Shown here: positions 2 to 61,516 of the stretch, piece by piece
Layout of the letters: every line of letters starts with the position of its first letter
Numbering within the stretch: the stretch's first letter is position 1
Assembly: GCA_963768055.1 (NCBI GenBank)
Contig: CAVYGN010000001.1
Span: 736,001 to 800,000, forward strand
DNA length: 64,000 nt
Source: an uncultured Spirochaetota bacterium
GTDB taxonomy: Bacteria; Spirochaetota; Brevinematia; Brevinematales; JAOACQ01
Reading direction: 5' to 3'
Made by a program: the position numbers and the translations under genes
Notes under the pieces: model-generated
Database searches by the model: none
What the model saw: only the letters and a program-made list of their open reading frames with translations
Told to the model about the DNA's origin: nothing

Positions 2-733
2 TACACTCGGCCTTGAAAACGACGGCATAACCTGTAACCTCTGCAAGGTCGCTAACATCGTAGCCCCTTTCATAGGAGAACCATTATCAGAATGTAAATA
101 CAAGCCTTTCAAATCAATGGTTTCTCCGATCTCTGCCACCATTCTTGCGGCATGATCAGAGCTTTCCTCCTCGTGCATTTTCCAGCCGACTATCTTACGG
201 CTCCAGACATCTTCGATCATATAGAGGTAGAAATACTTACCTTTTATATGACTGGATATATATGTAATATCCCAACTCCATACCTGATTAGGACCCGTCG
301 CTTCCAGTTCTCTTGGCGTTTTCCTTGCCGTTTTCGGCTTCGTTTCGTATCTATGGTGCAGCAAATCATTGTCCTTTAAAACGCGGTAAAAAGATGATTC
401 TGATGCTATATACCGACCTTCCTCTGCCAGCATGGGCACTATTTCATTCGGCGTCATATCTCTAAATCTCTCGCTGCAACAGCAGGAGATGATCTCCTCC
501 CTTTCTTCGGCCGACAGGGCATTTGAAGGCATTACATTTCTCAATTTTCTTCTGTCTCCCTCAAGATTTTTATTCCAGCGCTGTATGGTCCTTATATCAT
601 AGCCAGATTCTTCACAAGCCTTATCCCTGCTGGCCCCTGTCGTAACAGCCTCATTAATCAAGGCACAGATATCTATGCGTATATCCAATGGAGTTAATCT
701 TCCTCGATCCCGAACAGCTTGTTCAGTTTTTTT
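2..733 (-). CDS. IS3-family transposase OrfB (DDE/rve core), partial, reached by -1 frameshift; absent from the ORF track
   Basis: My translation is open from 733 to the window edge: ...YIASESSFYRVL...GPNQVWSWDITY...DVWSRKIVGW...LHSDNGSPMKGATMLATLQRLQVMPSFSRPSV. Confidence 0.9.
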
Positions 734-1176
734 TTAAGCACCAGCAGAGAAGTAACCTCGGCTATAGTTTTATCCTTACGGTTAATTTCTTTTTCTAACT
801 CTATGATTTTTGCTTTCAAACCCTTGTTTTCTTCTCTGTATGAGTTATTAGATATCACTGATAAACACTCCTGTTTCCAGAGTTCGATATGAGTCGACTG
901 GAGACCATTTTTTCTCAACCACTGTCCTAACTCTTCTCCCGATTGGCTTGCTGCGTCTACTACCGCCTGATATTTATCAGATAATTTCCAGCCTCTCGGG
1001 CTTCTATCCTGGAATCCTCTGGATACATTATTCTGGATCATTTTCCTCCAGTTGTAAAGGGTTTGTTCACATACTCCTATTTCCTGGCTCAGTTCAGATA
1101 CTGTTTTTCCTCCTGGCATACACATCTTTTGAACGATAGATTTCCTGAATTCCTCTGAACGAATTTGACTATTCAT
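694..1176 (-). CDS. IS3-family transposase OrfA (HTH plus coiled coil)
   Basis: SEEFRKSIVQKM...TVSELSQEIGVCEQTLYNWRK HTH. Ends LLVLKKK over an A9 run. Confidence 0.9.
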   Translation of the reverse strand: MNSQIRSEEFRKSIVQKMCMPGGKTVSELSQEIGVCEQTLYNWRKMIQNNVSRGFQDRSPRGWKLSDKYQAVVDAASQSGEELGQWLRKNGLQSTHIELWKQECLSVISNNSYREENKGLKAKIIELEKEINRKDKTIAEVTSLLVLKKKLNKLFGIEED

Positions 1177-3655: not shown

Positions 3656-5962
3656 ATGGAGAATAACACGCCGGCACAATCCGACAAAACCCATGCCATA
3701 CTTACCGGCATTTCCGTTTTCCTAGTGTCTTTCGCTTCTCTTTTTTTCGAGATAACATTTCCCCGCATTCTGCTTTTTATACGGTACTACAATGCCATTA
3801 CTATTATTCCTGCGGCCATGCTCGGCATGGGGGCAGGCGCGGTATTTTCCTATCTCATGGGCAAAAGCCGGATAGCGCATTTTATTTTCCTTCTCATTTT
3901 CCCTTTTTCGGTTTTCCTCTCTTTTTATGTCCTGATCTTTTACGATAAGCAAATATATATCATATTATCAGCCTCATTCGTGTTTTTTATTTCAAGCGTT
4001 ATTATTACTTATTTTTTTATCATCGGCCGTTCAAACAGGATTTATTTTTACAGCCTGGCCGGCGCGGGTCTCGGAGTGGCGGTATCGTTTTTTATCTTTC
4101 CAATGATCGGCGGGGAGAACAGCATCATCCTCAGCGCAGTTATAGCTTCATTATCCGGGGTAACGGCATGCTTAAGCAAAATCTCTTTCCCGAGATTCCG
4201 CTTCATAGCAGCAGGATTTCAGATACTGATTTTTGCAATTATTGCATCGGTATTTGCTTATAATCTCTCTACGGACAGGATCGATATCATCAGCATGATG
4301 CCGCTTTCCGCCAAAGGCGACCAGGATCCCCTCCTCACGGCTCATGGCATCCTCAAGGATAAAACCAGCGTCCATCTTTATAAAAAATGGAGCCTTATTT
4401 CGCGTATAGACGCCGTCTCGACTTCAAAAAAACTTTGGGACAGCCCGTACAATGGAAGAAGGGTTTATCTTTATCAAAACGATTTATACTTTAGTTATGT
4501 CCCGGTTTCGGACATTGCGCATTTCAGGCAGCCCGCCTATATTTTGTTCAAGGAACCCAAGTCATTGATCATGGGTACCGGCGGAGGGGCAGATATCGCT
4601 GTAGCCCGTGGAAATAATAGCAAAAGACCTGTAGGCGTAGAGATCGATCCCGCCATTGTGGATATTATGCGCAAGGAACTCAGCAAAACAAGCTCTAATG
4701 TATACGGCCAGGCGGATATCAGCGTCATCGACGGCCGGGCATTTGTCAAAAATTACAGGAACGCCTATGATGTAATCCTTATGAATTTCACCGATCTTAA
4801 TATCGCGTTCCCTAATTCGCAGGTCTTTATGGAATATTATCTCTATACTGTTGAAGCGCTCCGTGATTATCTTGCCGCGCTGACCGATAACGGAGTTGTT
4901 TATATAAATAAATGGGTGTCTGTCGGCAGGGGAAGGAAGCCCGAACTCCTCCGGCTTACCGCTACAGCGCTGGAAGCTCTTGAAAAATCAGGCTGTAAAG
5001 ATCCCCAAAAGCATCTTTTTATTGCATCCGAAAATCCTAAGAAATCTCTTGTATTCCCGGGTGCGATAAGAGGCTTTCTCCTTATGAAAAAATCGCCGTT
5101 CACGGCCGCCCAGATCGCGGAATTAAAGCAATGCATCGAGAATACGCATACAGTGCTTTATCCGGCGAGTGAATTCATTGAAAACAATTCATTTTCGTAC
5201 CTGATCGATTCAAAAAACAGGGATAATATTATAAATGAATTCAGGAACGATATTCATCCCACCCATGACGATAAACCTTACTTTAATGAATTCGATAAAA
5301 AACACACTTTCGCAGGAAATGTGGCAAAGGATTTCATTAATCTGATGCTGCTTTTAATCTGCCTTCCGGTTTTGCTTATCATTTTTATTGACAGAAACCT
5401 CAGGAAAATAAAAACCCCGCTCTTTGCCCTGTTTTTCGCATGCACCGGCCTCTCTTTTATGTTTTTTGAAACATTCCTTATCCAGAAATTCAATCTTGTG
5501 CTTGGAAGTCCCATTTACTCGCTGACTTTTAATGTCGGTGCGATACTTCTTTCGGCCGGTATCGGCGGATATTACAGCGCAAAGTTTAACAAAAAAATTT
5601 CAATGATTCTTGTAGCGCTGATCCCTTTTGTGCTTTTCGCTTATTATTTCCTGATAAACGGTTTCGCTTATAATTTACTGAACCTTCCCCTGGCGCTGAG
5701 ATTGCTGCTGTCCGGTATATCTCTGTTCCCGGTATTTTTCCTGCTCGGGATCCCTTTCCCGGGCATTATCGCAAAAGCAAAAGAGGTCTTTAGCGACAGA
5801 TCTGTCGGTATAATGTATGCTGTCGATGCAAGCTTTTCGACTTTCGCCGTCGTTTCTTCCATTATTATTTCAATGATCTTCGGATTTTCATCTCTGCTGA
5901 TTTTATCGGCGATCGTTTACTCTTTAACGGCGATATTATACATTATTATAAAAGAAGTGTAA
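3656..5962 (+). CDS. Membrane-embedded spermidine-synthase-like class I SAM-binding protein
   Basis: TM blocks at both ends flank a central IMGTGGGADI..VEIDP..IDGRAFV..YDVI Rossmann motif set. Confidence 0.8.
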   Translation: MENNTPAQSDKTHAILTGISVFLVSFASLFFEITFPRILLFIRYYNAITIIPAAMLGMGAGAVFSYLMGKSRIAHFIFLLIFPFSVFLSFYVLIFYDKQIYIILSASFVFFISSVIITYFFIIGRSNRIYFYSLAGAGLGVAVSFFIFPMIGGENSIILSAVIASLSGVTACLSKISFPRFRFIAAGFQILIFAIIASVFAYNLSTDRIDIISMMPLSAKGDQDPLLTAHGILKDKTSVHLYKKWSLISRIDAVSTSKKLWDSPYNGRRVYLYQNDLYFSYVPVSDIAHFRQPAYILFKEPKSLIMGTGGGADIAVARGNNSKRPVGVEIDPAIVDIMRKELSKTSSNVYGQADISVIDGRAFVKNYRNAYDVILMNFTDLNIAFPNSQVFMEYYLYTVEALRDYLAALTDNGVVYINKWVSVGRGRKPELLRLTATALEALEKSGCKDPQKHLFIASENPKKSLVFPGAIRGFLLMKKSPFTAAQIAELKQCIENTHTVLYPASEFIENNSFSYLIDSKNRDNIINEFRNDIHPTHDDKPYFNEFDKKHTFAGNVAKDFINLMLLLICLPVLLIIFIDRNLRKIKTPLFALFFACTGLSFMFFETFLIQKFNLVLGSPIYSLTFNVGAILLSAGIGGYYSAKFNKKISMILVALIPFVLFAYYFLINGFAYNLLNLPLALRLLLSGISLFPVFFLLGIPFPGIIAKAKEVFSDRSVGIMYAVDASFSTFAVVSSIIISMIFGFSSLLILSAIVYSLTAILYIIIKEV

Positions 5963-8960: not shown

Positions 8961-9548
8961 ATGTCCGTTGAAGATTGCTTAAAGTTATTCAATCTAAAAC
9001 CTGATGCAACTTTAAATGATGTCAAAAAAGCTTACAGGATCCTCGCTAAAAAAAATCATCCCGATAGGTTCGTAAATACCGAATTGAAAAATAGACAAGA
9101 AGACACGATGGTTAAAATAAATGAAGCGTATAATCAAATCATCTTGAATTTTAAAAAAAATAAAAATGTTTTAAATTTTGAAATAAAAAAGGATACCTTT
9201 AAAAATTCCGGAAATGAGGCTGCCGATTACAGGCTTTATAAAACGGGCCTTGAATATTATGACAGGTGTTACGAGGGTATTTCTAAAATGGCAAAACATG
9301 ATATAAAGGATAGGGAGGACAACCTTAATAAAGCTAAATCTTGCTTTATACAGGTCTTAAATGAATATCCCAATAGCGATTGGGCGTTCGACGCGGGAGA
9401 AAAATTAAAAAAAATTGAAAAGCTCATAGATAGTCTTGAAAAACAAAGGAATTATAATCGGGATACTCAGTGGTCTCCGCCAAAAAAAGATTCCGGATTT
9501 TATTCGCAAAAATTTAAAGATTTGTTTAAGGGCGGTTCCAAAAACTAG
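8961..9548 (+). CDS. J-domain protein with C-terminal TPR-like helices
   Basis: KKAYRILAKKNHPDRF...INEAY J-domain; F..VLNEYPNSDWAFDA TPR-like motif. Confidence 0.85.
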   Translation: MSVEDCLKLFNLKPDATLNDVKKAYRILAKKNHPDRFVNTELKNRQEDTMVKINEAYNQIILNFKKNKNVLNFEIKKDTFKNSGNEAADYRLYKTGLEYYDRCYEGISKMAKHDIKDREDNLNKAKSCFIQVLNEYPNSDWAFDAGEKLKKIEKLIDSLEKQRNYNRDTQWSPPKKDSGFYSQKFKDLFKGGSKN

Positions 9549-9684
9549 ATTTTTGAAAAACAATCGTAATGATGAATCTAATAATTCCGCCAAATGGTGC
9601 CCTGGTGCCTGGCCCCAGGACAGGGCCACTTGTCCCCGTAAGGGTTTATCCCCGTAAGGGGGGCAGTTATTAGAAGTGCCCTTA
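9526..9684. mobile_element. MITE-like element, copy 1
   Basis: Left end TTAAGGGCGGTTCCAAAAACT; right end AGTTATTAGAAGTGCCCTTAA (imperfect inverted repeats, TTAA at both borders); GC-rich hairpins inside. Confidence 0.65.
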
Positions 9685-9738
9685 AAAAATAAATAGATCT
9701 TTCTTGTTATTAACCATCCATTAAATGAGGTAAAATAT

Positions 9739-9767
9739 TTGACCTGAAAATCGTGAATGGATATACT
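9739..9767 (+). promoter_or_regulatory. Putative sigma70 promoter of the C1 peptidase gene
   Basis: TTGACC-17 nt-TATACT. Confidence 0.55.
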
Positions 9768-9810
9768 TAAGACCATAATGGCGGGTTTGTCGTAAAGGGG
9801 TAATAGCGTT

Positions 9811-10857
9811 ATGAAATTATCTTTAAAAATTGCTTATACTGATCTTATACCTTCGGGAATAGTTTTATCGGCTGTTTTATGGCCGGCTCTTACAGTACTT
9901 GCAACACTTACACTTTCCGGCTGTTCGAATTCGCCGGGGTCTTCCGGGGGCGGGGGTGGAAATGGGTCCGGTTCTTCGACTTCAAAGCCGATCAACGACG
10001 CAGCCCATGAATTTTCTCCCTCCTGGGTTTACAACCAGATAAACGGCGGAGCGGATAACGGCAGCGATCCTGCCCAGGCGATGCAGCTGATAATTGGTAA
10101 TGGGATAGATACACTATATTATTTTCCATATAATCCAAACGATTATTCTACCAAGCCCGATTCCGCGTCCATGAAAAGGGCTATTCAATATAAAGAATCG
10201 GGATGGATGTTCGTTTCTATAGATATCAATTCCATTAAGCAGCTCTTATCCACGGGGTTGCCCGTCGCAATAGCGATCAAGACATATGATCCTGATTTTG
10301 ATAATCTTGGATCAACAACAGGTTCGCTGACCGGCGATGTTTATTGTACTACTAACGCTTATAAAAACAGCAATTATGACGGCGATCATGAAATCTGTCT
10401 TGTCGGTTATGACGACAACAAGGGTTATTCATACCCCTCAGGCTCGGGCAGCGGGGCGTTCAGGTTCATCAATTCATGGGGTACAGGTTGGGACGACAAC
10501 GGATACGGCTGGATATCCTATTCATTCATATCGAACAGTGTCATTGAAGAAGCTGTCACGTTTAATTCGGCCGGATCGATTGCCGGCGGATCGATTACTC
10601 TTTCTTATGAAACTATGCCCGGAAGTTCTCTTCCAAACATAACAGGCCTGAGACGGCGGGGCGTAAAATTTAATAAACAGGCAAGAATTGCTATGAGATC
10701 ATATCTTTTCAAAAGTTCGGTCGCTCCGTTAGGATCTTCGGCTGATATTTCCGGAAGCATGCCGCCTGTCGGCAATCAGGGAATCCAGAATTCCTGCGTC
10801 GGCTGGGCCATCGGCTACTATATGAAAACTTACCTTCAAAACGGAAGGGGGTGGTGA
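9811..10857 (+). CDS. Papain-family (C1A) cysteine peptidase lipoprotein, circularly permuted
   Basis: Lipobox LSGC and a Gly/Ser linker, then FSPSWVYNQ, GDHEICLVGYDD (His), FINSWGTGW (Asn), and MPPVGNQGIQNSCVGWA (Gln/Cys) at the C-terminus. Confidence 0.85.
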   Translation: MKLSLKIAYTDLIPSGIVLSAVLWPALTVLATLTLSGCSNSPGSSGGGGGNGSGSSTSKPINDAAHEFSPSWVYNQINGGADNGSDPAQAMQLIIGNGIDTLYYFPYNPNDYSTKPDSASMKRAIQYKESGWMFVSIDINSIKQLLSTGLPVAIAIKTYDPDFDNLGSTTGSLTGDVYCTTNAYKNSNYDGDHEICLVGYDDNKGYSYPSGSGSGAFRFINSWGTGWDDNGYGWISYSFISNSVIEEAVTFNSAGSIAGGSITLSYETMPGSSLPNITGLRRRGVKFNKQARIAMRSYLFKSSVAPLGSSADISGSMPPVGNQGIQNSCVGWAIGYYMKTYLQNGRGW

Positions 10858-10870
10858 TGGGGGCAGCTAA

Positions 10871-11449
10871 ATGGATGAAAGGTTCAGAAAGCAATTAGAT
10901 TTTATTATTGAGATCGATAAAATTAAATCAATTTTCCGCAAAACAAAATTATTTGACGGCTCAAGATTGGAAAATGATTCCGAACATTCCTGGCACCTGG
11001 CCATGATGGCTATTATCCTGTTAGAGTATTCTAATGAACCTCTAAATTTCCCGAAAGTCATTAAAATGGTATTAATCCATGATATTGTTGAAATAGATGC
11101 CGGCGATACGATCATATATGCAAAAGATGCCCAAAAAGACAATGATGAAATTAAAGCAGCCGATAGAATATTCTCTTTATTGCCTGAAGACCAAAAGCAG
11201 GAAATGATAAGCATATGGAAGGAATTTGAAAAAAGGGAATCGCCCGAAGCTAAATTTGCCGCCGCCATTGACCGTCTTGAACCGGTTATGCAGAATTATT
11301 ATAATGATGCCCTTGCCTGGAGAAATAATAATATACCGGCAGAAAAAATTTTAAATGTCAATATTAGAATTAAAAACGGTTCTGAAAAATTATGGGATTA
11401 TGCAAAGAGCCTTATCGATAAATGTATTGAAAAAGGCTTGATTAAATGA
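10871..11449 (+). CDS. HD domain phosphohydrolase (YfbR/HDDC2-like)
   Basis: ENDSEHSWH, LIHDIVEIDAGD, DRLEP. Confidence 0.9.
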   Translation: MDERFRKQLDFIIEIDKIKSIFRKTKLFDGSRLENDSEHSWHLAMMAIILLEYSNEPLNFPKVIKMVLIHDIVEIDAGDTIIYAKDAQKDNDEIKAADRIFSLLPEDQKQEMISIWKEFEKRESPEAKFAAAIDRLEPVMQNYYNDALAWRNNNIPAEKILNVNIRIKNGSEKLWDYAKSLIDKCIEKGLIK

Positions 11450-14547: not shown

Positions 14548-17500
14548 TCAACCAATAACTACCTCAGCCAAATGTTCTGCACGGTCATCGAAAAGCGGTA
14601 AGAATTTATCCTCCCGTTTTATCCCGTCGACGGCTACCGAAACAACATTATCCGATGCCCCGGCCCGCACGATCGTTATATGATAAAATGTCTCTCTATA
14701 GCGGTAATGGATCTTGAACGAATTCCACTCTTCCGGCAGGCAGGGTTCAAAAGAAAGCCTGTCAACTTTTAATTGTATTCCCAGCAGGTACTTAACTATG
14801 AGCTGGTACATCCATGACGCGGAACCGGTATACCATGTCCACCCGCCGCGCCCGGCATGGGGCAGGGCGGTGTAAACATCTCCGCACATGACAAAAGGTT
14901 CCACTTTGTAAACATCGCACTTATCCGGGGTATCGCTATGCCGGACAGGGTTGATCAGGTTCAATAATTCCCAGGCGCGGTTTCGATCTTTCAGCAGCGC
15001 AAACGCAATAACCGCCCATACCGCGGCATGTGTATACTGGGCCCCGTTTTCCCTCACGCCTGGAACATATCCCATTATATATCCGGGGTTATTCGCGGAT
15101 TTATCAAACGGGGGATCGAAGAGTTTTATCAGGCCGTCTTTTCTGTCAACAAGCCGCCGGTCAACCTGGTCCATAGCAGCTTTAGCCCTCTGGGCGCCGG
15201 ACTCTCCGGATATGACCGCCCAGGACTGGGGTATCGAATCGATTTGACATTCCATGTTGGACGAAGAACCCAGGATTTCCCCGTTATCGAAATACGCCCT
15301 TATGTACCATTGCCCGTCCCATGCGTTTTCTTCAATGTTTTGTGAAAGAAGGTCAGCTTCTTTGAGGCATAATTCCGAAAAGCTCGCGTCTCCGCGGTTC
15401 AAGCTCAGCACGGACATCGATTTCAGGACATAGTACAGGAAGAATGCCAGCCAGACGCTTTCCCCTTTCCCTTTATTTCCTACAAGGTTCATCCCGTCGT
15501 TCCAATCGCCGCTTCCCATAAGCGGGAGGCCATGAATGCCGAAATTCAAGCTCTTTTTTACCGCTAAAACACAATGTTCATATAATGTTCCTGATTTACC
15601 GGATCTTTTAGGCGTTTCAAAATAAGATTCATCCCCCGGTTTTACCGGAGGCCCTTCAAGAAAGGCTGCTTGTTCCTCAAGGACCCCTGTATCCCCGATC
15701 TCATTTACATAAAGACATGTAACAAGCGGAAGCCATAAATAATCGTCCGAACAATGGGTGCGGATGCCGGCGCCGGATGAAGGATGCCACCAATGCTGAA
15801 CGTCGCCTTCGATAAATTGCCGCGAAGCGAAGGTCAGTAATTGTTCCCTTGCCATTCCCGGATTGGTATGCATCAGGGCCATGCAGTCCTGCAGCTGGTC
15901 GCGGAAACCGTACGCGCCGCCTGACTGATAAAAACCGCTGCGACCCCACAGGCGGCAGCTTATCACCTGATATTGCAGCCATCCGTTCACAAGAAAATTG
16001 ATAGAATTGTCAGGCGTTTCGATATATACCACTCCAAGGGTGTGTTTCCAGTATTCCCAGACGGCTTCCAGTTCCCGGCGTACCGACTCGGCTCCGTTAA
16101 AACGCTGCAGAAAACCCCTTGCTTCATCGACGCTTTTGCCGGAGCCGAAGATAAATATAATCTCCTTCTCATAGCTGTCGTCCAGCTGGAAAATTACCTG
16201 CATGGACGCACATGGGTCAAGGCCTGCTCCGGTATTGCCCGATAATCTTTCGCACAGCATTGCGGCGGGAGCCGCCATTGTGCCGTTCCTTCCTATAAAC
16301 TCGATCCTGTCGCCGCATACGAAACGTGCAGTTTCGTTGGTATCGAGGAAAACGATCCTGTCGGTGAAATCTTTATTGTAGGGATTATAAGCCAGGAGCG
16401 CGCCGCTTTTCGGGTCTACTTCTGTTGAAATATGCATATGGAATTTATCTCTGAAGGTACCCATAACCAGCTCATAGTAGGCTGCAGCGGAGAGTATTCT
16501 TTTTCGACCGGAGTTGTTTTTAACTTTTAAGACTGCAAATTTTACAGGGTGTTCAAGAGAAACAAAAACCGTCAATTCTGTGAAAATTCCCCACTCCTCA
16601 TGCTCGAAAATACTGTATCCGAAACCATGGCGGGTTACATAGATAGTTTTTCCCCCGGCTGGAAGTGGGGCGGGGGACCAGAAAAAACCTGTTTCCTCAT
16701 CGCGCAGATAAAGCGCTTCTCCGCAGGCGTCCGTTACCGGGTCGTTCTTCCATGGCGTTAGACGGTACTCATGCGCGTTTTCGCTCCATGTATACGCGGA
16801 CCCGCTTTCTGAAACTATTGTGCCGAAATTCCTGTTGGCCAGCACGTTTACCCAGGGAGCGGGAGTCCTGGCCGATAAGTTGGTTGTGATTACATATTCG
16901 CGGCCGTCATGGGTAAAACCGCCTAAACCGTTGAAATATTCCAGGTCGGAGCGTTCCCCGAATTTCTCTCCCGTTGTGCCGTAGGGCTGCCTTGACTTTT
17001 TACCCGGAGCAAACGGAAACCTGATTATCCTGGGTTGAGCTTTATACTCTATTTGTTCCGCCAGTGTTCCGCCCTTGTCGGTAATTACTATCCGCGTTGC
17101 GGTTTGCAGCAATATTTTATCATCTTCGGACATCTGGTCGGTACGCCTTAAGAATATCCTGCCCTGATGTTTCGACCCTGCCTCGGCATATGCCGATATC
17201 AGGCCGTTTATCCTTTCACTCATGCTGTCGCGATAAACCGAATGATCCTCATTCCAGATTACGAGGTCTGTTATCAGGCCTTTCAAGCTCCAGAACGAAT
17301 GCGCCTTCACCATTTGCGTTATCAAGTCAATATTTTCCTGATGTTCGATACTGACAAGCACTATAGGAAGGTCCCCTGAAATGCCATGTCCCCACAGGTC
17401 GGACTGCCCCCTTAAATTCTGCCTGAGGATGGCGGGATTCGCCCGCCATACGGGATTTGAATAAACAATGGCGCTCGCAAGACGGCCGTACAATTGAGCT

Positions 17501-20500
17501 TCGGATTCCGTTGTGTTGATCTGCTGCAATTCTACCTGCCCGTTCGTCCATGCAAGATCGAATACTCTGTCGGCAAGATTGCGGTCCCTGTACTTTTCCA
17601 TCAATGCGCGTGTGGATTCCCTGCTGCCGCATATTCCGGTAATATAATCGATTGTCGCCGATTCATCGTTTTCCAGTTCAATCCTGCAGCGGATGGAAAC
17701 AATCGGGTCCAGCACAGAACCTTCGCTGCCTGAAAGAGCTTCCCTGGTCTGCATGGCAAGCGGCCTTTCGGGTGTATTACATCTGCCGATAAATTTATTA
17801 CGATCGGTTTCATAGGTAGCGCCTTCGATCGAATTGCCATGAACAGCCATAAGATGCAGCATTATAGGAAAGGCGTCCTTTTCAGACCTGGGCCTCCGGG
17901 TGCAGATAATCGCCTGGTGCGACCTGATAATTTCCGTTTGTACAAACAGGTTGCTGAAACTTTTGTGCGCGTAGTCATTCGCGGGATAGTTCAAAACAAC
18001 TTCCGCATAGCTGGTAAGTTCAATAATGCGCTTGGTGCGAGACCTGTTTGTGATTGTAACCCTGCGTAGTTCTATATCGTCTTCCGGGGAAACAGCTATT
18101 TTCGTATGAGTTTCTATATGATGGTCCCTTCGCTTGAATTCCGCCCACGACCTTGAAAATATCGCCTCATAATTTCCTGATTTCTGCAGGGCCGGCTGGT
18201 ATGCCGAAGACCAGTATTCGCCCGTTTTCATATCGCGCAGATAAAGGAAAGTTCCTTCATTCTCCAAAGCCGTATCTTCGTGCCATCTGGTAATAGCGAT
18301 ATTATTCCAGCTGCTGTAACCGCCTCCGGAATTGGTCACCATGACGCTGTATTTGCCGTTGGATAACAGGTGTATTTCGGGCACAGGGGTATTGGGATTG
18401 GGAAATACACGCAATAAAGCCTCTCTTTCCTCTATTTTTCTGAGTAATCCGGTTACTTCGATATCGTAAAGGAATGGAACATCCTTGGGTACCCGTTCCT
18501 GAAGAAGCAGCTCCGTCGCCTTGAACATCGGGTCTGCCAGAAATCTTCTCTGCATAGGTTTATCCAGCAGGCAATATGCGAGAGCGAGTAAGCTCATCCC
18601 CTGGTGATGCGCCATGAATGACTTGACGACCGCATGTGTTTCATTATGGGCAAGCCTTGAAGGAGTATAATCTATTGCCTCATAAAAACCGTATTCTCCG
18701 TTAAATCCTTCCGTTCTCAAATTTTCAAGGTTTGTGCATGCTTTATCCGGCGTAACCATGAGGGCCAGGGCGGAAGCGTAAGGGGCGACGACCAGATCTT
18801 CGGACAGTCCCCTCTTAAAACCGATATCAGGTATTCCGAATGCGCGGTATTGATAGGCCATAGACGCATCCAGCTTATTATAGCCCGATTCGGAGATACC
18901 CCAGGGTATGTTGTTGCGAAAGGCATAGTCGATCTGGCGGCTTACCATGGTTTTATATGTTTTATTAAGCAGGGTTCCCTCGTAAGATGGCATAACAAGA
19001 AGAGGCATCAGGTATTCGAACATCGATCCGCCCCATGATACCAGAACGGGTTTTCCGCCGGGCTTTGAAAGCAGCCTGCCGAGCATAAACCAATGTTCCT
19101 GGGGCAGCCTCCCCTGGGCAATTGCCACAAAACTGCCGAGCCTGGCTTCGGATGCGAGAAGGTCGTAAAATGAAGGGTCCGGTTTGTGTTCGGCTACATT
19201 GTAACCTATTGAAAGAAGATGCGAGGATCTATTGTACAAAAACTCATATTCCATGACTGACATTTCGCTGCAGATTTGAGCCAGGTCATTAATCAAAACG
19301 ATCCTTGCGCTTGATCTTGCGCCGGCATCCTTAATCGAGGCCCTGAAAGCGGCGAACCATTCATTTCCCTTTATCGATTCGTCATCGTTCAGAATAAAAT
19401 GTTCGAGTATTGAATCTACCAGCGGCAATAATTTAAGCTCCAATCTTGCGGCTTCTCTAAGGGTGGGGATTTCATTAAGGCCTGACAATTCTTCCCTGAA
19501 CCGGGCAAGGCGCTTTTTCTGCTCATCATCCCCTTTGTCCCAAATACCCGGTATTAAAGGCGGTAGAAGGACCCAGGGTGAGTAAAAAGACAGTTCCTCC
19601 AGGCAATCGTAGCACTGTTTTTCAAGAGCCTTTACCCATTTTTTAATTTTTTCAGAGTACTGCAGATCCAGGATAGAGAGAATTTTTGAGATATCGGCTG
19701 TAAGCCCGTTTAAAAGCGGGTAAATTTCAGAAAGGCGGGCAGGCGGGGAATCGATTTTGTCCCTGATATGCTCTATCTCTTCATTTACTATTTTAAATGT
19801 ATCCCCGCGCCCCTTAACGTTTTCATGCAGGATATTCAAGGTATCGCAAAGCCCGTCAAATATCTTCAGGGATAGTATTTTATTCCCGGGTAATTCCAGC
19901 AGCCCGGAACGCAAAACCATGAGATGGCCGGCCATATTTCCGCTGTCGACCGAGGAAATATACAGCGGCTTCAAGGGTTTTATGGTAATTGTATCGTACC
20001 AGTTATAAAAATGCCCCCTGTATTTTTCCATGCCTTTCATTGTATGAAACGTTTTTCCCGTTCTGTCCAGCAGTCTGCCCATGGATATATAACCGAAATC
20101 GTATGCGGCCAGGTTTGATAGAAGGGACAAACCGATATTGGTCGGCGATGTCCTGTGGGCTGCTGCTCCCAGGAACTTTTCCTGGAAATTATCCGGAGGA
20201 AGCCAGTTATCCTGTCCGGTAACGAAGGTTTCGAAAAACCCCCAGGTCCTTCGGGCTATAGTTCTGAGAAAAACAAGCTGTTCTCCTGATAATCCGGCTT
20301 TAATGGCAGAAGGCGTCCCGCTGATGATATATGCGATCGCCGGCGATAAAAGCCATAAAATCGAAATGATAAAAACAAACGCACCGGTATATTTAAACAT
20401 TAAAACTGATACTATTAAAAGAGAAACGGCGGCGACAGGGGAAATAAACATTCTTTTATAAAAACCGATCGGTGATTTCGGCGAATTGTTTTCCGGCTCG

Positions 20501-23211
20501 CCGGATGTGATCCATTCAAGAAGGCGTCTGTGCGATACGGTCAGACGCCATAATGTCGAGATTATAGCGTTTAGAATGAAATAAGCCTCATATGCCATAA
20601 AGACGAACGAAAAACAAAATTGTGTAAAACGAATTCCGGCCGTCCGAACCGATGCCTTACGCGGTTTTTTCATGATTTCAAATAATGACATCAGCAGTCC
20701 GGGCAAACCTGTAAGAATGATTACAGCCGCAGGCCAGCCGGAAAGCAGAAGCAGAAGTGCAGATGCGGGAACCAGGCTTCGCCTCAAATTATCAAGGATC
20801 TTCCATTTTGATAAAAAAGAAAGCGGATTTCTTACATTGTTATGCCCGAAATCCGAAACGAGGGGTAAGAGCCACTTAGCGATCTGCCAATCGCCGCGGA
20901 CCCAGCGGTGCCTGCGTTGTACGTCTTTCAGGTAACCTTCCGGATAATCTTCATACAGCTGAATATCAGAAACAAGGGCGCTGCGTGCATAGCATCCTTC
21001 CAGCAGGTCATGGCTCAATATCAGGTTTTCCGGAAAACGCCCTTCTATGGATTTTTCAAAGGCGTCGATGTCATATAGTCCTTTTCCTATGAAGGAACCC
21101 TCTTGAAACAGGTCCTGGTATACATCCGATACCTCTTTAGTGTAGGGATCGATACCCGATTCACCCCCGTATACTTTAACGAAAGGGGAAGGATTATCCC
21201 CGGGATAGCCTGCCTCTACCCTGGGCTGAAGAATACCGTACCCGGCGGTTATGCGGTGTTTTTTTTCATCGTATACCGGCCTGTTCAGCGGATGCGAAAT
21301 TATTCCCACAAGGTCTCTTGCCGTATTCCGGGGCATCCGTGTATCCGTGTCGATCGTTATAACGTACTTAACATCCTGCAGACGCGAGGGATCGCCGATT
21401 ACAGTGCTGAACCTGGCCGTACCCCCGCCCCTGAGCAGGAAATTCAAATCCGAAAGTTTGCCTCTTTTCCGTTCATAACCCATCCATAATTTTTCCTGTA
21501 CATTCCATTTTCTTGGCCGGTGAAAGAGATAGAAAGTGTTTTCTTTTAGCCGCCTGTATTTTTGATTGAGTTTTTCTATTCCTTCTACAGCCTGTAAAAG
21601 TAATTGTTCGTCTCCGGGAACGGTTTCATGAACAGCATCGTTAAAATCCGTTAATAATGCGAAATCCAGATTGGGATCCGTGTTCGCGAGATAACGGACT
21701 TCAAGGTTTTCAATTAGCGATTCAACCGCCGAGGAGCTGCTGAGAATGGAGGGGACTACAATAAGCGTATGAGCCGATGCAGGTATGCCTTCAGAAAAAT
21801 CCATTTTAGGCAGTTTTTCAGGGGCGGCTAAGAGAGTTGAAATCCAGTTTACCAGGGATACAGCCGCCTGGCTGGCTGTAAACAGCAGCGGCAGGCTGAA
21901 TAAAAAAAGCCATTCCCGGTGCAGGTATCCCGGTTTCCATGGCAGGAACAAAGAGAGTGCCGCCGATGCGAATGTAATAATAAATATCGAGCCTATGTAT
22001 AAGAAGAGAAGCATCCGGGTATTTTTTGTGTGAAATCTCCCATGAGAGAACTTTTCAAGGCCTTTATCGATTAAATAATATCCTATATGTGCGGTGCGGT
22101 CATCAGGGCCTTTCAGGGATTTTGCCTCCTGTGCAGCCTGCACGACACTCGCCGCGATTTCCTCTTCCGTCTGCCCGCTTTGAATGGAAAGTTTTTCGAT
22201 CACATGGCGGTAACGGTCCCGTGTGACAAAAGACATTTTCCCGTAATCTCCGGAAGGGTCCTGTTTTAAAATATTTTCAACAAAGCTTAAATTCTCGACA
22301 AATTCATGCCAATCCACGGTATCCAGAAAGCGCAGGCTAATTATGGTATTTGCGATTGAAACCTGGTCCGCTGCCTGGTTTCTGCTTGTTAATTGAATAA
22401 GACGGTCGATTGTTTCCCCGTTTTCGGAAAGTTTTTTTTCAAGCCAGACAAGAGGAAAGTTTAGAGCGGAAGTCTGGCCCTGAAGCCTTCGCACAAATTC
22501 CGCCACGAAAGAATCCGAAAGCGGAAGGTCGAACTTCGCCATCGCGGCAATCTCGAGAACAATGCCGTCGGTATCTTTAACGGATATATCCAGGATACGG
22601 TTAGCCCAGTAATCCGCCCTGTCGTTGTCTATCTGCGAGCGCACCATGCGGTAGGAAACACGCCTCAAGTTTTCAATTAAAGCCAGCCTTATCATTATGG
22701 GAATGGCCCAGAGTTCCCCCAGCTTCAAATGTACTATCGACTGATATGCGGAAACAAAACCGGTAAGCCATTTTAAATCCACACGGCCGTCCCCATGGGA
22801 CACTATCTCCATGGCAATATCGTAAACCCTGGGATAACCGGCCAGCGGGCCTTTTATCAAAGTCGGCAATTCACGGCTGTAGCCCTTCGGCAGGAACCGC
22901 TGCGCGAGTCTTATCTGCTCTTCGATCAGATAGTAATTATCCAGCAGCCAGTCCCCGGCCGGCGAAACTTTTCTTTTGGCGTTTTCAGCCTCGGCAAGCA
23001 ATTCATTTGCTTTGACGATGATTTCTTCGTTTTCTTTCAGCCGGAAAAGAAGCTTTTCCCGCCCTCTTTTAAATCTGACCGAATGTTTTTCAGCCAGGCT
23101 TGCGGCGTACTGTTCGAATTGGTCCTGGCTGAAAAGCTCCGCCCTGAGCGGCTGTTCGTCAATATACTCCCTCACTGCCGAAAGATCATTTTTAAGAGAT
23201 TTTAGAGACAA
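14548..23211 (-). CDS. ndvB: Cyclic beta-1,2-glucan synthase (Cgs/NdvB/ChvB): GT84, cyclisation and GH94 phosphorylase domains
   Basis: 2887 aa. WLLDNYYLIEEQI, WMGYERKRGKL, IDTDT, SHDLLEG, RRHRWVRGDWQ, DLLASEARL, SWGGSMFEYLMP, YQSGGAYGFRDQLQD, GDWNDGMN, ENGAQYTHAA. TTG start with AAGGAG RBS. Confidence 0.93.
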   Translation of the reverse strand: MSLKSLKNDLSAVREYIDEQPLRAELFSQDQFEQYAASLAEKHSVRFKRGREKLLFRLKENEEIIVKANELLAEAENAKRKVSPAGDWLLDNYYLIEEQIRLAQRFLPKGYSRELPTLIKGPLAGYPRVYDIAMEIVSHGDGRVDLKWLTGFVSAYQSIVHLKLGELWAIPIMIRLALIENLRRVSYRMVRSQIDNDRADYWANRILDISVKDTDGIVLEIAAMAKFDLPLSDSFVAEFVRRLQGQTSALNFPLVWLEKKLSENGETIDRLIQLTSRNQAADQVSIANTIISLRFLDTVDWHEFVENLSFVENILKQDPSGDYGKMSFVTRDRYRHVIEKLSIQSGQTEEEIAASVVQAAQEAKSLKGPDDRTAHIGYYLIDKGLEKFSHGRFHTKNTRMLLFLYIGSIFIITFASAALSLFLPWKPGYLHREWLFLFSLPLLFTASQAAVSLVNWISTLLAAPEKLPKMDFSEGIPASAHTLIVVPSILSSSSAVESLIENLEVRYLANTDPNLDFALLTDFNDAVHETVPGDEQLLLQAVEGIEKLNQKYRRLKENTFYLFHRPRKWNVQEKLWMGYERKRGKLSDLNFLLRGGGTARFSTVIGDPSRLQDVKYVITIDTDTRMPRNTARDLVGIISHPLNRPVYDEKKHRITAGYGILQPRVEAGYPGDNPSPFVKVYGGESGIDPYTKEVSDVYQDLFQEGSFIGKGLYDIDAFEKSIEGRFPENLILSHDLLEGCYARSALVSDIQLYEDYPEGYLKDVQRRHRWVRGDWQIAKWLLPLVSDFGHNNVRNPLSFLSKWKILDNLRRSLVPASALLLLLSGWPAAVIILTGLPGLLMSLFEIMKKPRKASVRTAGIRFTQFCFSFVFMAYEAYFILNAIISTLWRLTVSHRRLLEWITSGEPENNSPKSPIGFYKRMFISPVAAVSLLIVSVLMFKYTGAFVFIISILWLLSPAIAYIISGTPSAIKAGLSGEQLVFLRTIARRTWGFFETFVTGQDNWLPPDNFQEKFLGAAAHRTSPTNIGLSLLSNLAAYDFGYISMGRLLDRTGKTFHTMKGMEKYRGHFYNWYDTITIKPLKPLYISSVDSGNMAGHLMVLRSGLLELPGNKILSLKIFDGLCDTLNILHENVKGRGDTFKIVNEEIEHIRDKIDSPPARLSEIYPLLNGLTADISKILSILDLQYSEKIKKWVKALEKQCYDCLEELSFYSPWVLLPPLIPGIWDKGDDEQKKRLARFREELSGLNEIPTLREAARLELKLLPLVDSILEHFILNDDESIKGNEWFAAFRASIKDAGARSSARIVLINDLAQICSEMSVMEYEFLYNRSSHLLSIGYNVAEHKPDPSFYDLLASEARLGSFVAIAQGRLPQEHWFMLGRLLSKPGGKPVLVSWGGSMFEYLMPLLVMPSYEGTLLNKTYKTMVSRQIDYAFRNNIPWGISESGYNKLDASMAYQYRAFGIPDIGFKRGLSEDLVVAPYASALALMVTPDKACTNLENLRTEGFNGEYGFYEAIDYTPSRLAHNETHAVVKSFMAHHQGMSLLALAYCLLDKPMQRRFLADPMFKATELLLQERVPKDVPFLYDIEVTGLLRKIEEREALLRVFPNPNTPVPEIHLLSNGKYSVMVTNSGGGYSSWNNIAITRWHEDTALENEGTFLYLRDMKTGEYWSSAYQPALQKSGNYEAIFSRSWAEFKRRDHHIETHTKIAVSPEDDIELRRVTITNRSRTKRIIELTSYAEVVLNYPANDYAHKSFSNLFVQTEIIRSHQAIICTRRPRSEKDAFPIMLHLMAVHGNSIEGATYETDRNKFIGRCNTPERPLAMQTREALSGSEGSVLDPIVSIRCRIELENDESATIDYITGICGSRESTRALMEKYRDRNLADRVFDLAWTNGQVELQQINTTESEAQLYGRLASAIVYSNPVWRANPAILRQNLRGQSDLWGHGISGDLPIVLVSIEHQENIDLITQMVKAHSFWSLKGLITDLVIWNEDHSVYRDSMSERINGLISAYAEAGSKHQGRIFLRRTDQMSEDDKILLQTATRIVITDKGGTLAEQIEYKAQPRIIRFPFAPGKKSRQPYGTTGEKFGERSDLEYFNGLGGFTHDGREYVITTNLSARTPAPWVNVLANRNFGTIVSESGSAYTWSENAHEYRLTPWKNDPVTDACGEALYLRDEETGFFWSPAPLPAGGKTIYVTRHGFGYSIFEHEEWGIFTELTVFVSLEHPVKFAVLKVKNNSGRKRILSAAAYYELVMGTFRDKFHMHISTEVDPKSGALLAYNPYNKDFTDRIVFLDTNETARFVCGDRIEFIGRNGTMAAPAAMLCERLSGNTGAGLDPCASMQVIFQLDDSYEKEIIFIFGSGKSVDEARGFLQRFNGAESVRRELEAVWEYWKHTLGVVYIETPDNSINFLVNGWLQYQVISCRLWGRSGFYQSGGAYGFRDQLQDCMALMHTNPGMAREQLLTFASRQFIEGDVQHWWHPSSGAGIRTHCSDDYLWLPLVTCLYVNEIGDTGVLEEQAAFLEGPPVKPGDESYFETPKRSGKSGTLYEHCVLAVKKSLNFGIHGLPLMGSGDWNDGMNLVGNKGKGESVWLAFFLYYVLKSMSVLSLNRGDASFSELCLKEADLLSQNIEENAWDGQWYIRAYFDNGEILGSSSNMECQIDSIPQSWAVISGESGAQRAKAAMDQVDRRLVDRKDGLIKLFDPPFDKSANNPGYIMGYVPGVRENGAQYTHAAVWAVIAFALLKDRNRAWELLNLINPVRHSDTPDKCDVYKVEPFVMCGDVYTALPHAGRGGWTWYTGSASWMYQLIVKYLLGIQLKVDRLSFEPCLPEEWNSFKIHYRYRETFYHITIVRAGASDNVVSVAVDGIKREDKFLPLFDDRAEHLAEVVIG

Positions 23212-59359: not shown

Positions 59360-61516
59360 ATGGCTGAATTAAGATGGAACCCCCTTCTCAAAACATGGAC
59401 CATGGTCGCGGTAGACCGGCAGACAAGGCCGCTTATGCCGAAGGATTGGTGTCCGTTCTGCCCCGGTTCAGGCAGGGTGCCTGACGACTATGAGGTTTTA
59501 AAATACGATAACGATTTCCCTGTACTTTCCCCTAATCCCTCGAAAGTCGAAGCCCTCGATTCTTACGTTTACCAGAGGGAGGAGGCGCAGGGGAAATGCG
59601 AGGTGATTTTATATTCCCCTGACCACCGCAGGCACCTGTACCAACTGCCCATTGAGCATATAAGAAAGCTTGTAGATCTTTGGGTTGAAAGGATCGATGA
59701 AATTTCGAAAGATAGAAAAGTGCAGTATGTTTTTCCTTTTGAAAACAGGGGCGAGGAAGTGGGGGTGACAATGCCGCACCCGCATGGCCAGATATACGGA
59801 TATCCCTTTATTCCCCTCAAAATAAAAACCGAACTCGACAGTGCCAAAGAATATTATGAGAAACGGAACAAGTGTCTCATCTGCGAAATGAACGAGGAGG
59901 AATCCGAGGAAAAAAACAGAGTGGTGTTCGAAAACAGCGATTTTATTGCATATATACCGTATTTTACTGATTATCCCTACGGGGTTTTCATCGTCAGCAA
60001 GCTCCACAAGGGATCTTTATCCAATCTCGACGATAAGGAGAAGACCTCCCTGGCGCAGGCTTTGAAGGTTGTTACAGGAAGCTTCGACATGATCTTCAAC
60101 AGGCCCTTCCCGTATATGATGGCATTGCATCAGACCCCGGTAAATTCAAAGGAATATAAGGACTGTGAAAATTACTACCATTTCCATATTGAATTTTATC
60201 CTCCCCTTTACGCTAAAGACAGGCTCAAGTACAACGCCTCTTCGGAAACCGGGGCATGGGCTGCGGCAAACGTTGTCAGCGTGGCCGACACCGCCAGGCA
60301 GATGAGGACCGCCAAATTGAAATATCTTTCTAAGGGATATAACACGCTCCTGCGCAAAGAACTTATAAGAGAGTTTATAGCTCTTTACGGGGGCAGGGAG
60401 GGCGATGTTTTTGTTTTCACGGCTCCTGCCAGGGTCAATCTTATCGGGGAGCATATAGATTATAACGGAGGATTTGTGCTTCCGGTAGACCTCGATATGT
60501 ATATTAGTATGGCAATAAGAAAAAGAAAAGACGGCAGGGTAATATTCCGGGATTTGAACTACCCTGAAGCCGCGGAGGCCAGTATTTTCGAAGCGGTAAT
60601 AAAAAACAAGGAAGTCGGCTGGGCCAATTATCCTCTTGGAGTTCTTAAAGTTATGACGGAAAAGGGATACAGGATCGATACCGGTTTTGAAGTCCTTTTT
60701 TTCAGCGAAATACCCGTCGGGGCCGGGATGTCCTCTTCTGCCGCTTTCGAGCTTGTTTTTGCGTACGGGCTTTCCGAGATCTACACTCTGGGAATAAGCA
60801 AGAAAAACCTGGCTATTCTATGCCAGAAGGTTGAAAACGAATTTGTCGGAGTGGAATGCGGGATCATGGATCAATTCAGCATAGCCCTCGGCGAAAAAGG
60901 TTTTGCGATGTTCCTTAACTGCTCGACCCTGGATTACAAATATATTCCTCTTACCCTCGGTGATTACAGGATGATAATTACAAACACCAACAAACCCCAT
61001 AAACTTTTAACTTCAAAATACAACGAAAGGCTGGCTGAGTGCAAAGATGGTTTAGCCGATATCAGGAAAGTGATGAATATAGAAAATCTCTGCAGCCTGG
61101 ATTCGGAACAGTATAAAAAGGTCAGGGACTCGATTACAAGCCAGACGGTAAAAAAAAGAGTGCGTCATGTCGTCACGGAGAACGAGAGGGTAAAGCAAGC
61201 CGCCGAGGCCCTCGAAAAAAGCGACCTTAAAACATTCGGCAAGCTTATGGAAAAATCGCACTCATCCCTGAGGGACGATTACGAAGTCACGGGTATAGAG
61301 CTTGACACACTCTTTGAAAAAGCCCGAAAATTTAACGGATGTATCGGGACAAGGATGACCGGCGGAGGTTTCGGCGGGTGTACGATTAGCCTTGTACACA
61401 AGCATAAAATCGATGAATTCATGGATACTGTCGGCAAGGGTTATAAGGATGAGACGGGTATAGCCCCTTCATTTTATATCTGCGATTCGGGGGATGGCGT
61501 AAAAAGGATAGATTAA
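59360..61516 (+). CDS. galT-galK: Fused galactose-1-phosphate uridylyltransferase / galactokinase (GalT-GalK)
   Basis: GalT: ELRWNP, CPFCPG, FENRG..GVTMPHPHGQ, HFHIEFYPP. GalK: APARVNLIGEHIDYNGG, PVGAGMSSSAA, CGIMDQF, RMTGGGFGGC. Confidence 0.92.
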   Translation: MAELRWNPLLKTWTMVAVDRQTRPLMPKDWCPFCPGSGRVPDDYEVLKYDNDFPVLSPNPSKVEALDSYVYQREEAQGKCEVILYSPDHRRHLYQLPIEHIRKLVDLWVERIDEISKDRKVQYVFPFENRGEEVGVTMPHPHGQIYGYPFIPLKIKTELDSAKEYYEKRNKCLICEMNEEESEEKNRVVFENSDFIAYIPYFTDYPYGVFIVSKLHKGSLSNLDDKEKTSLAQALKVVTGSFDMIFNRPFPYMMALHQTPVNSKEYKDCENYYHFHIEFYPPLYAKDRLKYNASSETGAWAAANVVSVADTARQMRTAKLKYLSKGYNTLLRKELIREFIALYGGREGDVFVFTAPARVNLIGEHIDYNGGFVLPVDLDMYISMAIRKRKDGRVIFRDLNYPEAAEASIFEAVIKNKEVGWANYPLGVLKVMTEKGYRIDTGFEVLFFSEIPVGAGMSSSAAFELVFAYGLSEIYTLGISKKNLAILCQKVENEFVGVECGIMDQFSIALGEKGFAMFLNCSTLDYKYIPLTLGDYRMIITNTNKPHKLLTSKYNERLAECKDGLADIRKVMNIENLCSLDSEQYKKVRDSITSQTVKKRVRHVVTENERVKQAAEALEKSDLKTFGKLMEKSHSSLRDDYEVTGIELDTLFEKARKFNGCIGTRMTGGGFGGCTISLVHKHKIDEFMDTVGKGYKDETGIAPSFYICDSGDGVKRID

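Follow-up and report, generated by a model that had tools for sequence, protein, structure and literature searches.

The locus at positions 9811..10857 (forward strand) of the stretch analysed here, a window of 64,000 nucleotides (nt) from contig CAVYGN010000001.1 of an uncultured Spirochaetota bacterium, raises the question whether a peptidase of the papain family (C1) may be encoded with its catalytic cysteine at the far end of the chain. The open reading frame (ORF) has 348 codons followed by TGA, and its product of 348 amino acids (aa; P0001) carries the papain-type catalytic residues in the order His193, Asn221, Gln323, Cys329, which is not the linear order of C1 (Gln/Cys helix, His, Asn). 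We regard this arrangement, with moderate confidence, as real and lineage-specific, the result of a circular permutation in a bacterial lipoprotein peptidase of the C1 family, in the genome of a Brevinematales-like spirochaete. The ORF, its length and every motif quoted in a first-pass annotation of the same DNA, made from the letters and their translations, were found at the residues where that annotation had placed them.

The swapped order was established by using a family profile built from 17 canonical close homologs (297 match states). The profile matches the product twice: residues 60-252 correspond to profile positions 111-297 (252.7 bits), and residues 277-344 to profile positions 36-105 (58.5 bits, E 3e-20). 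These two pieces, referred to below as the body and the tail, match far beyond chance, are swapped, and are complementary to within about 5 profile positions. The proposal of the first-pass annotation, a C1 peptidase in which the Gln/Cys-helix segment lies C-terminal to the part bearing His and Asn, is borne out by these matches; its stricter statement, that the two parts join with neither gap nor overlap, holds to within the same few profile positions and not to the single residue, as the break falls in a variable loop. By pairwise comparison, the tail maps to residues 37-103 of homolog P0002 (53.7% identity, E 7e-16), and the body to residues 124-321 of the same protein (57% identity).

The general Pfam model gives half of this picture. 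PF00112 matches only residues 83-247 (profile positions 67-214 of 220; 47.9 bits, with a cut-off of 20.7; E 2.2e-12), leaving out profile positions 1-66, where Gln and Cys are located. The isolated tail, searched against Pfam as 80 aa and as 48 aa, produced no match because it is too short for the general model, and the family-specific profile was therefore used. Two partial PF00112 matches in swapped order had been anticipated; PF00112 finds the body only, whereas the 17-homolog profile finds both pieces, swapped. The parts of the gene are the following.

9794..9800, forward strand: Shine-Dalgarno-like AAAGGGG, 10 nt before the ATG, read from the sequence
9811..9924, forward strand: putative signal peptide with lipobox LSGC (residues 35-38, Cys38), by inspection
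9925..9984, forward strand: Gly/Ser-rich tether, residues 39-58, SNSPGSSGGGGGNGSGSSTS, read from the sequence
9985..10566, forward strand: body, residues 59-252, beginning at the loop that follows the Cys helix and ending at the usual C-terminus (...AVTFN), by the 17-homolog profile, PF00112 and the structure model
10387-10389 and 10471-10473, forward strand: codons of His193 and Asn221, with Trp223 also in the body, by alignment
10567..10644, forward strand: new linker, residues 253-278, SAGSIAGGSITLSYETMPGSSLPNIT, with a predicted local distance difference test score (pLDDT) <50
10645..10758, forward strand: internalised N-terminal extension, residues 279-316 (GLRRRGVKFNK...ADISGS), homologous to the canonical GLHPLGAKFD... 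region that follows the lipobox
10759..10854, forward strand: Gln/Cys-helix segment, residues 317-348, MPPVGNQGIQNSCVGWAIGYYMKTYLQNGRGW, by profile, alignment and predicted helix
10777-10779 and 10795-10797, forward strand: codons of Gln323 and Cys329, by alignment

Within the product, FSPSWVYNQ occupies residues 68-76, GDHEICLVGYDD residues 191-202 (with His193) and INSWG residues 220-224 (with Asn221). The basic stretch TGLRRRGVKFNKQARIAMRS covers residues 278-297, and SADISGSMPPVGNQGIQNSCVGWAIGYYMKTYLQNGRGW residues 310-348, including Gln323 and Cys329, with the TGA directly after it. In the eight closest proteins the canonical order was found: a signal peptide with lipobox, a short linker, an extension of the GLHPLGAKFD type, the MPPVGNQG..SC..GW helix and a variable loop, followed by EFSPSWVYNQ ... 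GGHAICLVGYDD ... FINSWG ... AVTFD and the stop codon. The query reads instead lipobox, Gly/Ser tether, KPINDAAHEFSP ... AVTFN, SAGSIAGGSITLSYETMPGSSLPNIT, GLRRRGVKFNK ... GW, stop. The break point of the permutation is the loop after the Cys helix, whose length in the relatives, counted from GW to EFSP, ranges from 8 residues to about 27. The start of the moved block corresponds roughly to that of the linker after the lipobox in the relatives, and its end coincides exactly with the stop codon. Neither junction interrupts the reading frame, and the gene keeps its lipobox and its Shine-Dalgarno-like site.

The canonical proteins used for comparison are bacterial C1 lipoprotein peptidases (P0002, P0003, P0004, and the locus L001 of a Brevinematales metagenome-assembled genome (MAG), which is the closest C1 locus found). 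The body is 57, 58 and 53% identical to P0002, P0003 and P0004, respectively (BLASTP), and the tail 40-54% identical. Query and relatives share a lipobox-like N-terminus, the extension motif GL.xxGxKF(D/N), the catalytic residues and the end of the fold, ...AVTF(D/N). Unlike the relatives, the query has the Cys segment downstream of the body, a Gly/Ser tether, a new 26-aa linker and Glu194 after the catalytic His. The canonical relatives, some of which are labelled "C1A family cysteine protease" in some sources, carry an N-terminal extension of only 40-60 aa. In the first-pass annotation the moved extension had been called an internalised propeptide; its homology to the canonical N-terminal extension stands, whereas an I29-type propeptide is not recognised, no I29 inhibitor family being listed by Pfam for the protease at E <= 10.

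Lipoboxes follow the pattern [LVI][ASTVI][GAS]C. By inspection, the LSGC at residues 35-38 is preceded by a long hydrophobic stretch, and the putative signal peptide of 38 residues is unusually long; comparable ...SC/..NC.. lipoboxes are seen by inspection in the alignment of the canonical relatives. The Gly/Ser tether has no homology among the 79 genome loci described below, except a low-complexity match in L001. The new 26-aa linker resembles, by eye, the linker that follows the lipobox in P0005.

The state of the two pieces was analyzed on alignments of 73 sequences and in comparison with 72 relatives. His193, Asn221 and Trp223 are invariant in the 73 sequences and in 72/72 relatives; the column of Cys329 is also invariant and that of Gln323, six residues before the Cys, near-invariant. 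All four catalytic residues, Gln323, Cys329, His193 and Asn221, are thus kept, in agreement with the first-pass annotation. In the body, 35 columns are conserved at >=85%; the query deviates at two of them (R218 and D228), a number reached or exceeded by 20 of the 72 relatives. In the tail it deviates at one of 12 conserved columns (Q343), as much as or less than 22 of the 72. P0002 is the nearest relative for both pieces, with identities over the profile columns of 63.5% for the body and 47.8% for the tail, and the identities of body and tail to the 17 homologs are correlated (Spearman 0.67, p 0.003).

Relatives sharing the permuted order were looked for among proteins and in genomes. A word-indexed protein search gave 227 matches in all; among the 119 of them listed, 118 have a homolog of the Cys segment directly upstream of the body, one is body only (P0104) and none is permuted. 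An exhaustive phmmer search over 1.84 billion representatives gave 7089 matches at E <= 1e-3; among the best 150 of these 7089, only the query itself aligns in one stretch (1-348), and the other 149 align in two or three stretches. The order test, performed on 242 fetched homologs, assigned 241 to the canonical class (Cys segment directly upstream of the body) and one to a truncated, body-only class, with none permuted; nor do these 242 proteins include any two-domain C1 protein with a collinear body, linker and Cys helix. At the genome level, 333 relatives were found in species-representative genomes, and 80 were kept; the 79 loci examined do not include the query genome or that of P0004. The permuted order was found at none of the 79 loci: 85 body matches are canonical, one more, in L019, has the canonical order and is followed by the next gene of a tandem array, and the rest are two matches truncated where a contig stops (L043, L067) and one weak edge match (L076). 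None of these loci shares neighbour genes with the window. The query's own 90% cluster has one member, and the nearest clusters returned by the ESM Atlas, which contains no model of the query protein, are all PF00112, ordinary C1. Homologs of the same order, for which the first-pass annotation had suggested a search, were therefore found neither among the proteins nor at the loci, which is one half of a condition that the annotation had named as speaking against its proposal. The permuted order is a singleton among the relatives examined; more distant relatives, beyond the best 150 phmmer matches or in metagenomes, may share it.

The ability of the two pieces to fold together was evaluated by using AlphaFold2 (AF2). 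The first model, of residues 60-348 with 72 body homologs, has a mean pLDDT of 65.3 and a predicted template modelling score (pTM) of 0.66; the body reaches about 85-90, everything from residue 263 on is below 50, and the tail lies between 26 and 39. When many tail rows were added, MAFFT misplaced parts of the body rows, aligning their GAFKFINSWG..GYGWISY or His block with the tail columns; alignment A8, composed of the body rows and four tail homologs (the clean limit in the MAFFT trials), was verified to be clean and used for a second model. With A8 the mean pLDDT is 70.3 and the pTM 0.75; the tail rises to 46-66 (61, 66, 52, 59 and 46 for the successive blocks of residues 300-348), and a helix is predicted at residues 330-343. 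In the fold search the body matches C1 structures, the best match and nearest solved structure being Xylellain of Xylella fastidiosa (PDB 3ois), which is also the best PDB match by sequence (E 7e-8).

The body also superposes on the 205-residue chain B of the two-chain cathepsin B entries 1huc and 1sp4, with a template modelling (TM) score of 0.64 normalised to the target. We take this chain to be the heavy chain of cathepsin B, the catalytic Cys presumably being on a separate light chain (about residues 1-47). If so, chain B lacks the Cys segment, and a chain interrupted at roughly this loop is compatible with an active C1 enzyme. The two cases differ in that the break in cathepsin B is post-translational, in a canonically ordered precursor whose chains are held by a disulfide, whereas in the query the rearrangement lies in the gene itself and connects the two pieces in the opposite order.

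Two short similarities were observed around the junctions. An imperfect 15-nt tandem duplication lies at the start of the linker, at 10566-10580 and 10581-10595 (TTCGGCCGGATCGAT and TGCCGGCGGATCGAT; family D1, 80% identity); it encodes SAGSI-AGGSI, is not reported by Tandem Repeats Finder (TRF), and suggests later changes in linker length. A G-rich similarity of 13/15 nt, in different frames, links 9952-9966, in the Gly/Ser tether, to 10847-10861, in the last codons and the stop (family D14). It could be microhomology of the rearrangement or chance, and as an explanation of the junctions it was judged too weak for arguing a mechanism.

Against the permutation stand three other explanations. 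An error of assembly or consensus, behind which the organism would really carry a canonical gene or two adjacent genes, appears improbable. Only one record carries the permuted order, and tandem paralogs, which occur in this family, can confuse assemblers; however, no repeat longer than about 15 nt was found at any of the three junctions, TRF reports nothing, both linkers of the permuted protease are unique sequence, and the gene lies on a contig of 1,800,866 nt (1.8 Mb). The 64-kb window holds no second C1 fragment: every match outside the ORF has E >= 0.09, with the sole exception of the tail alignment of P0013, which runs on past the protease stop codon, and the gene beginning 13 nt downstream leaves no room for the remnant of a second protease copy. 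Nor would a misjoin be expected to yield an uninterrupted, in-frame and exactly complementary ORF between a lipobox and a stop codon placed 13 nt before the next gene. Still harder to credit is the explanation by which the body alone is the working unit, either as a binding module with a catalytically inactive papain fold or with complementation in trans, the Cys segment being a dispensable appendage: in the model the body does fold confidently without the tail, but the tail keeps 11 of the 12 conserved family positions, Cys and Gln included, and a body lacking the central helix, which in the papain fold forms the domain interface, would expose its core.

The serious rival to an active permutation is a real but recent and dead rearrangement, i.e. 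a scrambled canonical gene or a collapsed tandem pair, left as a non-functional relic whose product is misfolded or inactive. We consider it rather unlikely, yet several observations lean to its side and weigh against the permutation that we favour. The order is a singleton, present in no relative examined, and thus gives no sign of having been maintained in evolution. Immediately after the catalytic His comes Glu194, at a position where the 72 relatives have Ala (60), Gly (6), Val (3), Ser (2) or Thr (1) and never Glu, and Asp228 replaces a Gly invariant in the 72 relatives, although Asp is also present in the close homolog P0003. The ratio of tail to body identity is 0.753, compared with a median of 0.853 for canonical pairs and per-sequence medians of 0.749-0.953; it is at the low end, yet within the range of the family. 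In neither AF2 model is the tail confidently docked: with A8, residues 255-303 and 325-328, just before Cys329, have a pLDDT below 50, and the tail is placed with low confidence, next to a confidently modelled body. Lastly, identity to even the nearest relative is no higher than about 57-63%; the event is thus undatable, and intact motifs are no proof of selection. The relic is countered by the junctions being in frame, the pieces being complementary within a variable surface loop, the block ending at the stop codon and the lipobox being kept, which together would be a rare combination for an unselected accident, and by conserved residues not having been lost in excess; papain-like folds are, moreover, known to tolerate both this break point and a helix-last order (PMC10318531). 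The residue after the catalytic His (Ala160 in papain) is presumably part of the lining of the S2 pocket, and Glu194 could mean a changed specificity instead of damage. At the sequence level, the permutation is supported.

In the gene, a block composed of linker, extension and Gln/Cys helix (about 96 codons) follows AVTFN and runs up to the stop codon, and the Gly/Ser tether joins the lipobox to the loop preceding EFSP. Should the permutation be genuine, this tether would anchor the new N-terminus to the lipidated Cys38. Residues 253-316 (roughly 64 residues) would bridge the old C-terminus and the old N-terminus, and the C-terminal helix would pack back into the inter-domain groove of the body, Cys329 facing His193 and Asn221, with Gln323 as the oxyanion residue. 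The product would be a membrane-tethered cysteine peptidase of the cell surface or periplasm.

The origin might most simply be a duplication followed by a deletion; alternatively, the block between lipobox and loop may have been relocated to just before the stop codon. Two or three C1 genes on the same strand, within about 2.5 kb, are found at 7 of the 79 loci (L019, L032, L040, L046, L049, L051 and L079), and such adjacent genes in the relatives provide raw material for the duplication-deletion route. At L019:5470-8828, in a Bacillota MAG, three tandem C1 genes lie on one strand; the other six loci have two each, and the pair at L032 is in the same reading frame.

A permutation that carries the Cys helix to the C-terminus is of a kind known in other papain-like families, whereas no C1 case was met with in the literature covered. 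PMC10318531 describes a permuted core helix for PPPDE/C97, C92, LRAT and LupA and says of cluster I (papain, cathepsins) that its members "retain canonical structures"; helix permutation in papain-like families is also described in PMC3142127. According to these sources, the Cys helix follows the His-bearing beta-sheet in PPPDE/DeSI (C97, PF05903), YaeF/YiiX-like (C92) and LRAT/H-RAS-like (PF04970) proteins and in LupA, as it does in the query, and the topology of the permuted protease would match that of these helix-last families (PPPDE/C97, LRAT, YiiX/C92). The resemblance is in topology only, no match of PF05903, PF04970 or related models to the protease being found at E <= 10. Unlike the query, which is a C1 protein with canonical relatives at about 60% identity, the helix-permuted families are old and large, belong to the NlpC/P60 or deubiquitinase clusters and have Pfam models of their own. 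No description of a permuted C1 or cathepsin-type enzyme was found in a literature coverage without most subscription journals, by which absence in print is not proven. The statement of the first-pass annotation, that permutation is known in NlpC/P60-type papain-like folds and that it knew of no described C1A example, agrees with this literature (PMC10318531), within the same incomplete coverage. PMC4070553, considered as a candidate report of a permuted enzyme, concerns PDZ domains.

Two further features are relevant to the expression of the gene.

9739..9767, forward strand: promoter-like TTGACC-17 nt-TATACT, 44 nt upstream of the ATG, with 10/12 consensus matches
10871..11449, forward strand: HD_3 phosphohydrolase gene, separated from the protease stop codon by 13 nt

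A promoter of its own had been attributed to the gene. A promoter-like site is indeed present upstream, but such sites are frequent in the region (16, versus 5.8 +/- 2.6 in shuffles), and the one at 9739..9767 is a consensus match only. The HD_3 gene is possibly co-transcribed with the protease gene. The genes on either side are of ordinary chromosomal kinds, with a J-domain protein upstream and HD_3, a membrane protein and a GNAT protein downstream. The G+C content is somewhat higher in the protease gene (about 0.39-0.56) than in its two neighbour genes (about 0.28-0.40). PurH encoded in the window shares 81-82% identity with its nearest matches and 67% with the protein of one named member of the Brevinematales.

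Within the A+T-rich spacer upstream of the protease gene there is a G+C-rich stretch, 9590-9670, in which CCCCGTAAGGG occurs twice, 16 nt apart, and which is flanked by a 25-nt inverted repeat (9522-9546 / 9665-9689). The stretch may contain the terminator of the J-domain gene. The doubled CCCCGTAAGGG is not repeated elsewhere in the window beyond chance, and Rfam gave 0 matches over the window. The only trace of a mobile element seen in the window is an ORF of 160 aa at 697-1176 (reverse strand) with the transposase domain HTH_Tnp_1, about 9 kb from the protease gene. Elsewhere in the window, a single ORF of 2887 aa at 14551-23211 (reverse strand) contains glucoamylase-like, GH94 supersandwich and GH94 catalytic domains, a layout that we take to be that of the giant enzymes of the cyclic beta-1,2-glucan synthase type. 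At 59360-61513 (forward strand) a 718-aa GalT-GalK fusion joins the N and C domains of galactose-1-phosphate uridylyltransferase to a galactokinase (GHMP kinase), and at 3656-5959 (forward strand) the sole Pfam match of a 768-aa ORF is a spermine/spermidine synthase domain, at residues 304-415.

As a tentative extension of the permutation, possible rather than probable in our judgement, the protein may be the first natural active permuted member of C1, still near its origin. The extension would then act as an internal tether, maybe occluding the cleft, and its excision would leave a lipid-anchored, two-chain enzyme with a break similar to that of cathepsin B, in which Glu194, in the wall of S2, would change the substrate preference.

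Whole families of the papain-like superfamily are set apart from one another by a permuted Cys helix, but these permutations took place long ago and no intermediates survive. In the present case, the permuted gene has canonical relatives at about 60% identity, and both new junctions and linkers can be read. If the product is inactive, the case is that of an ordinary rearranged gene in a single genome. If it is active, it would be a natural test case for the tolerance of a two-domain protease fold to re-threading, for the recruitment of linkers and for the use of an N-terminal extension as an internal tether, and pipelines that annotate by PF00112 would credit such genes with no more than a "partial" C1 domain.

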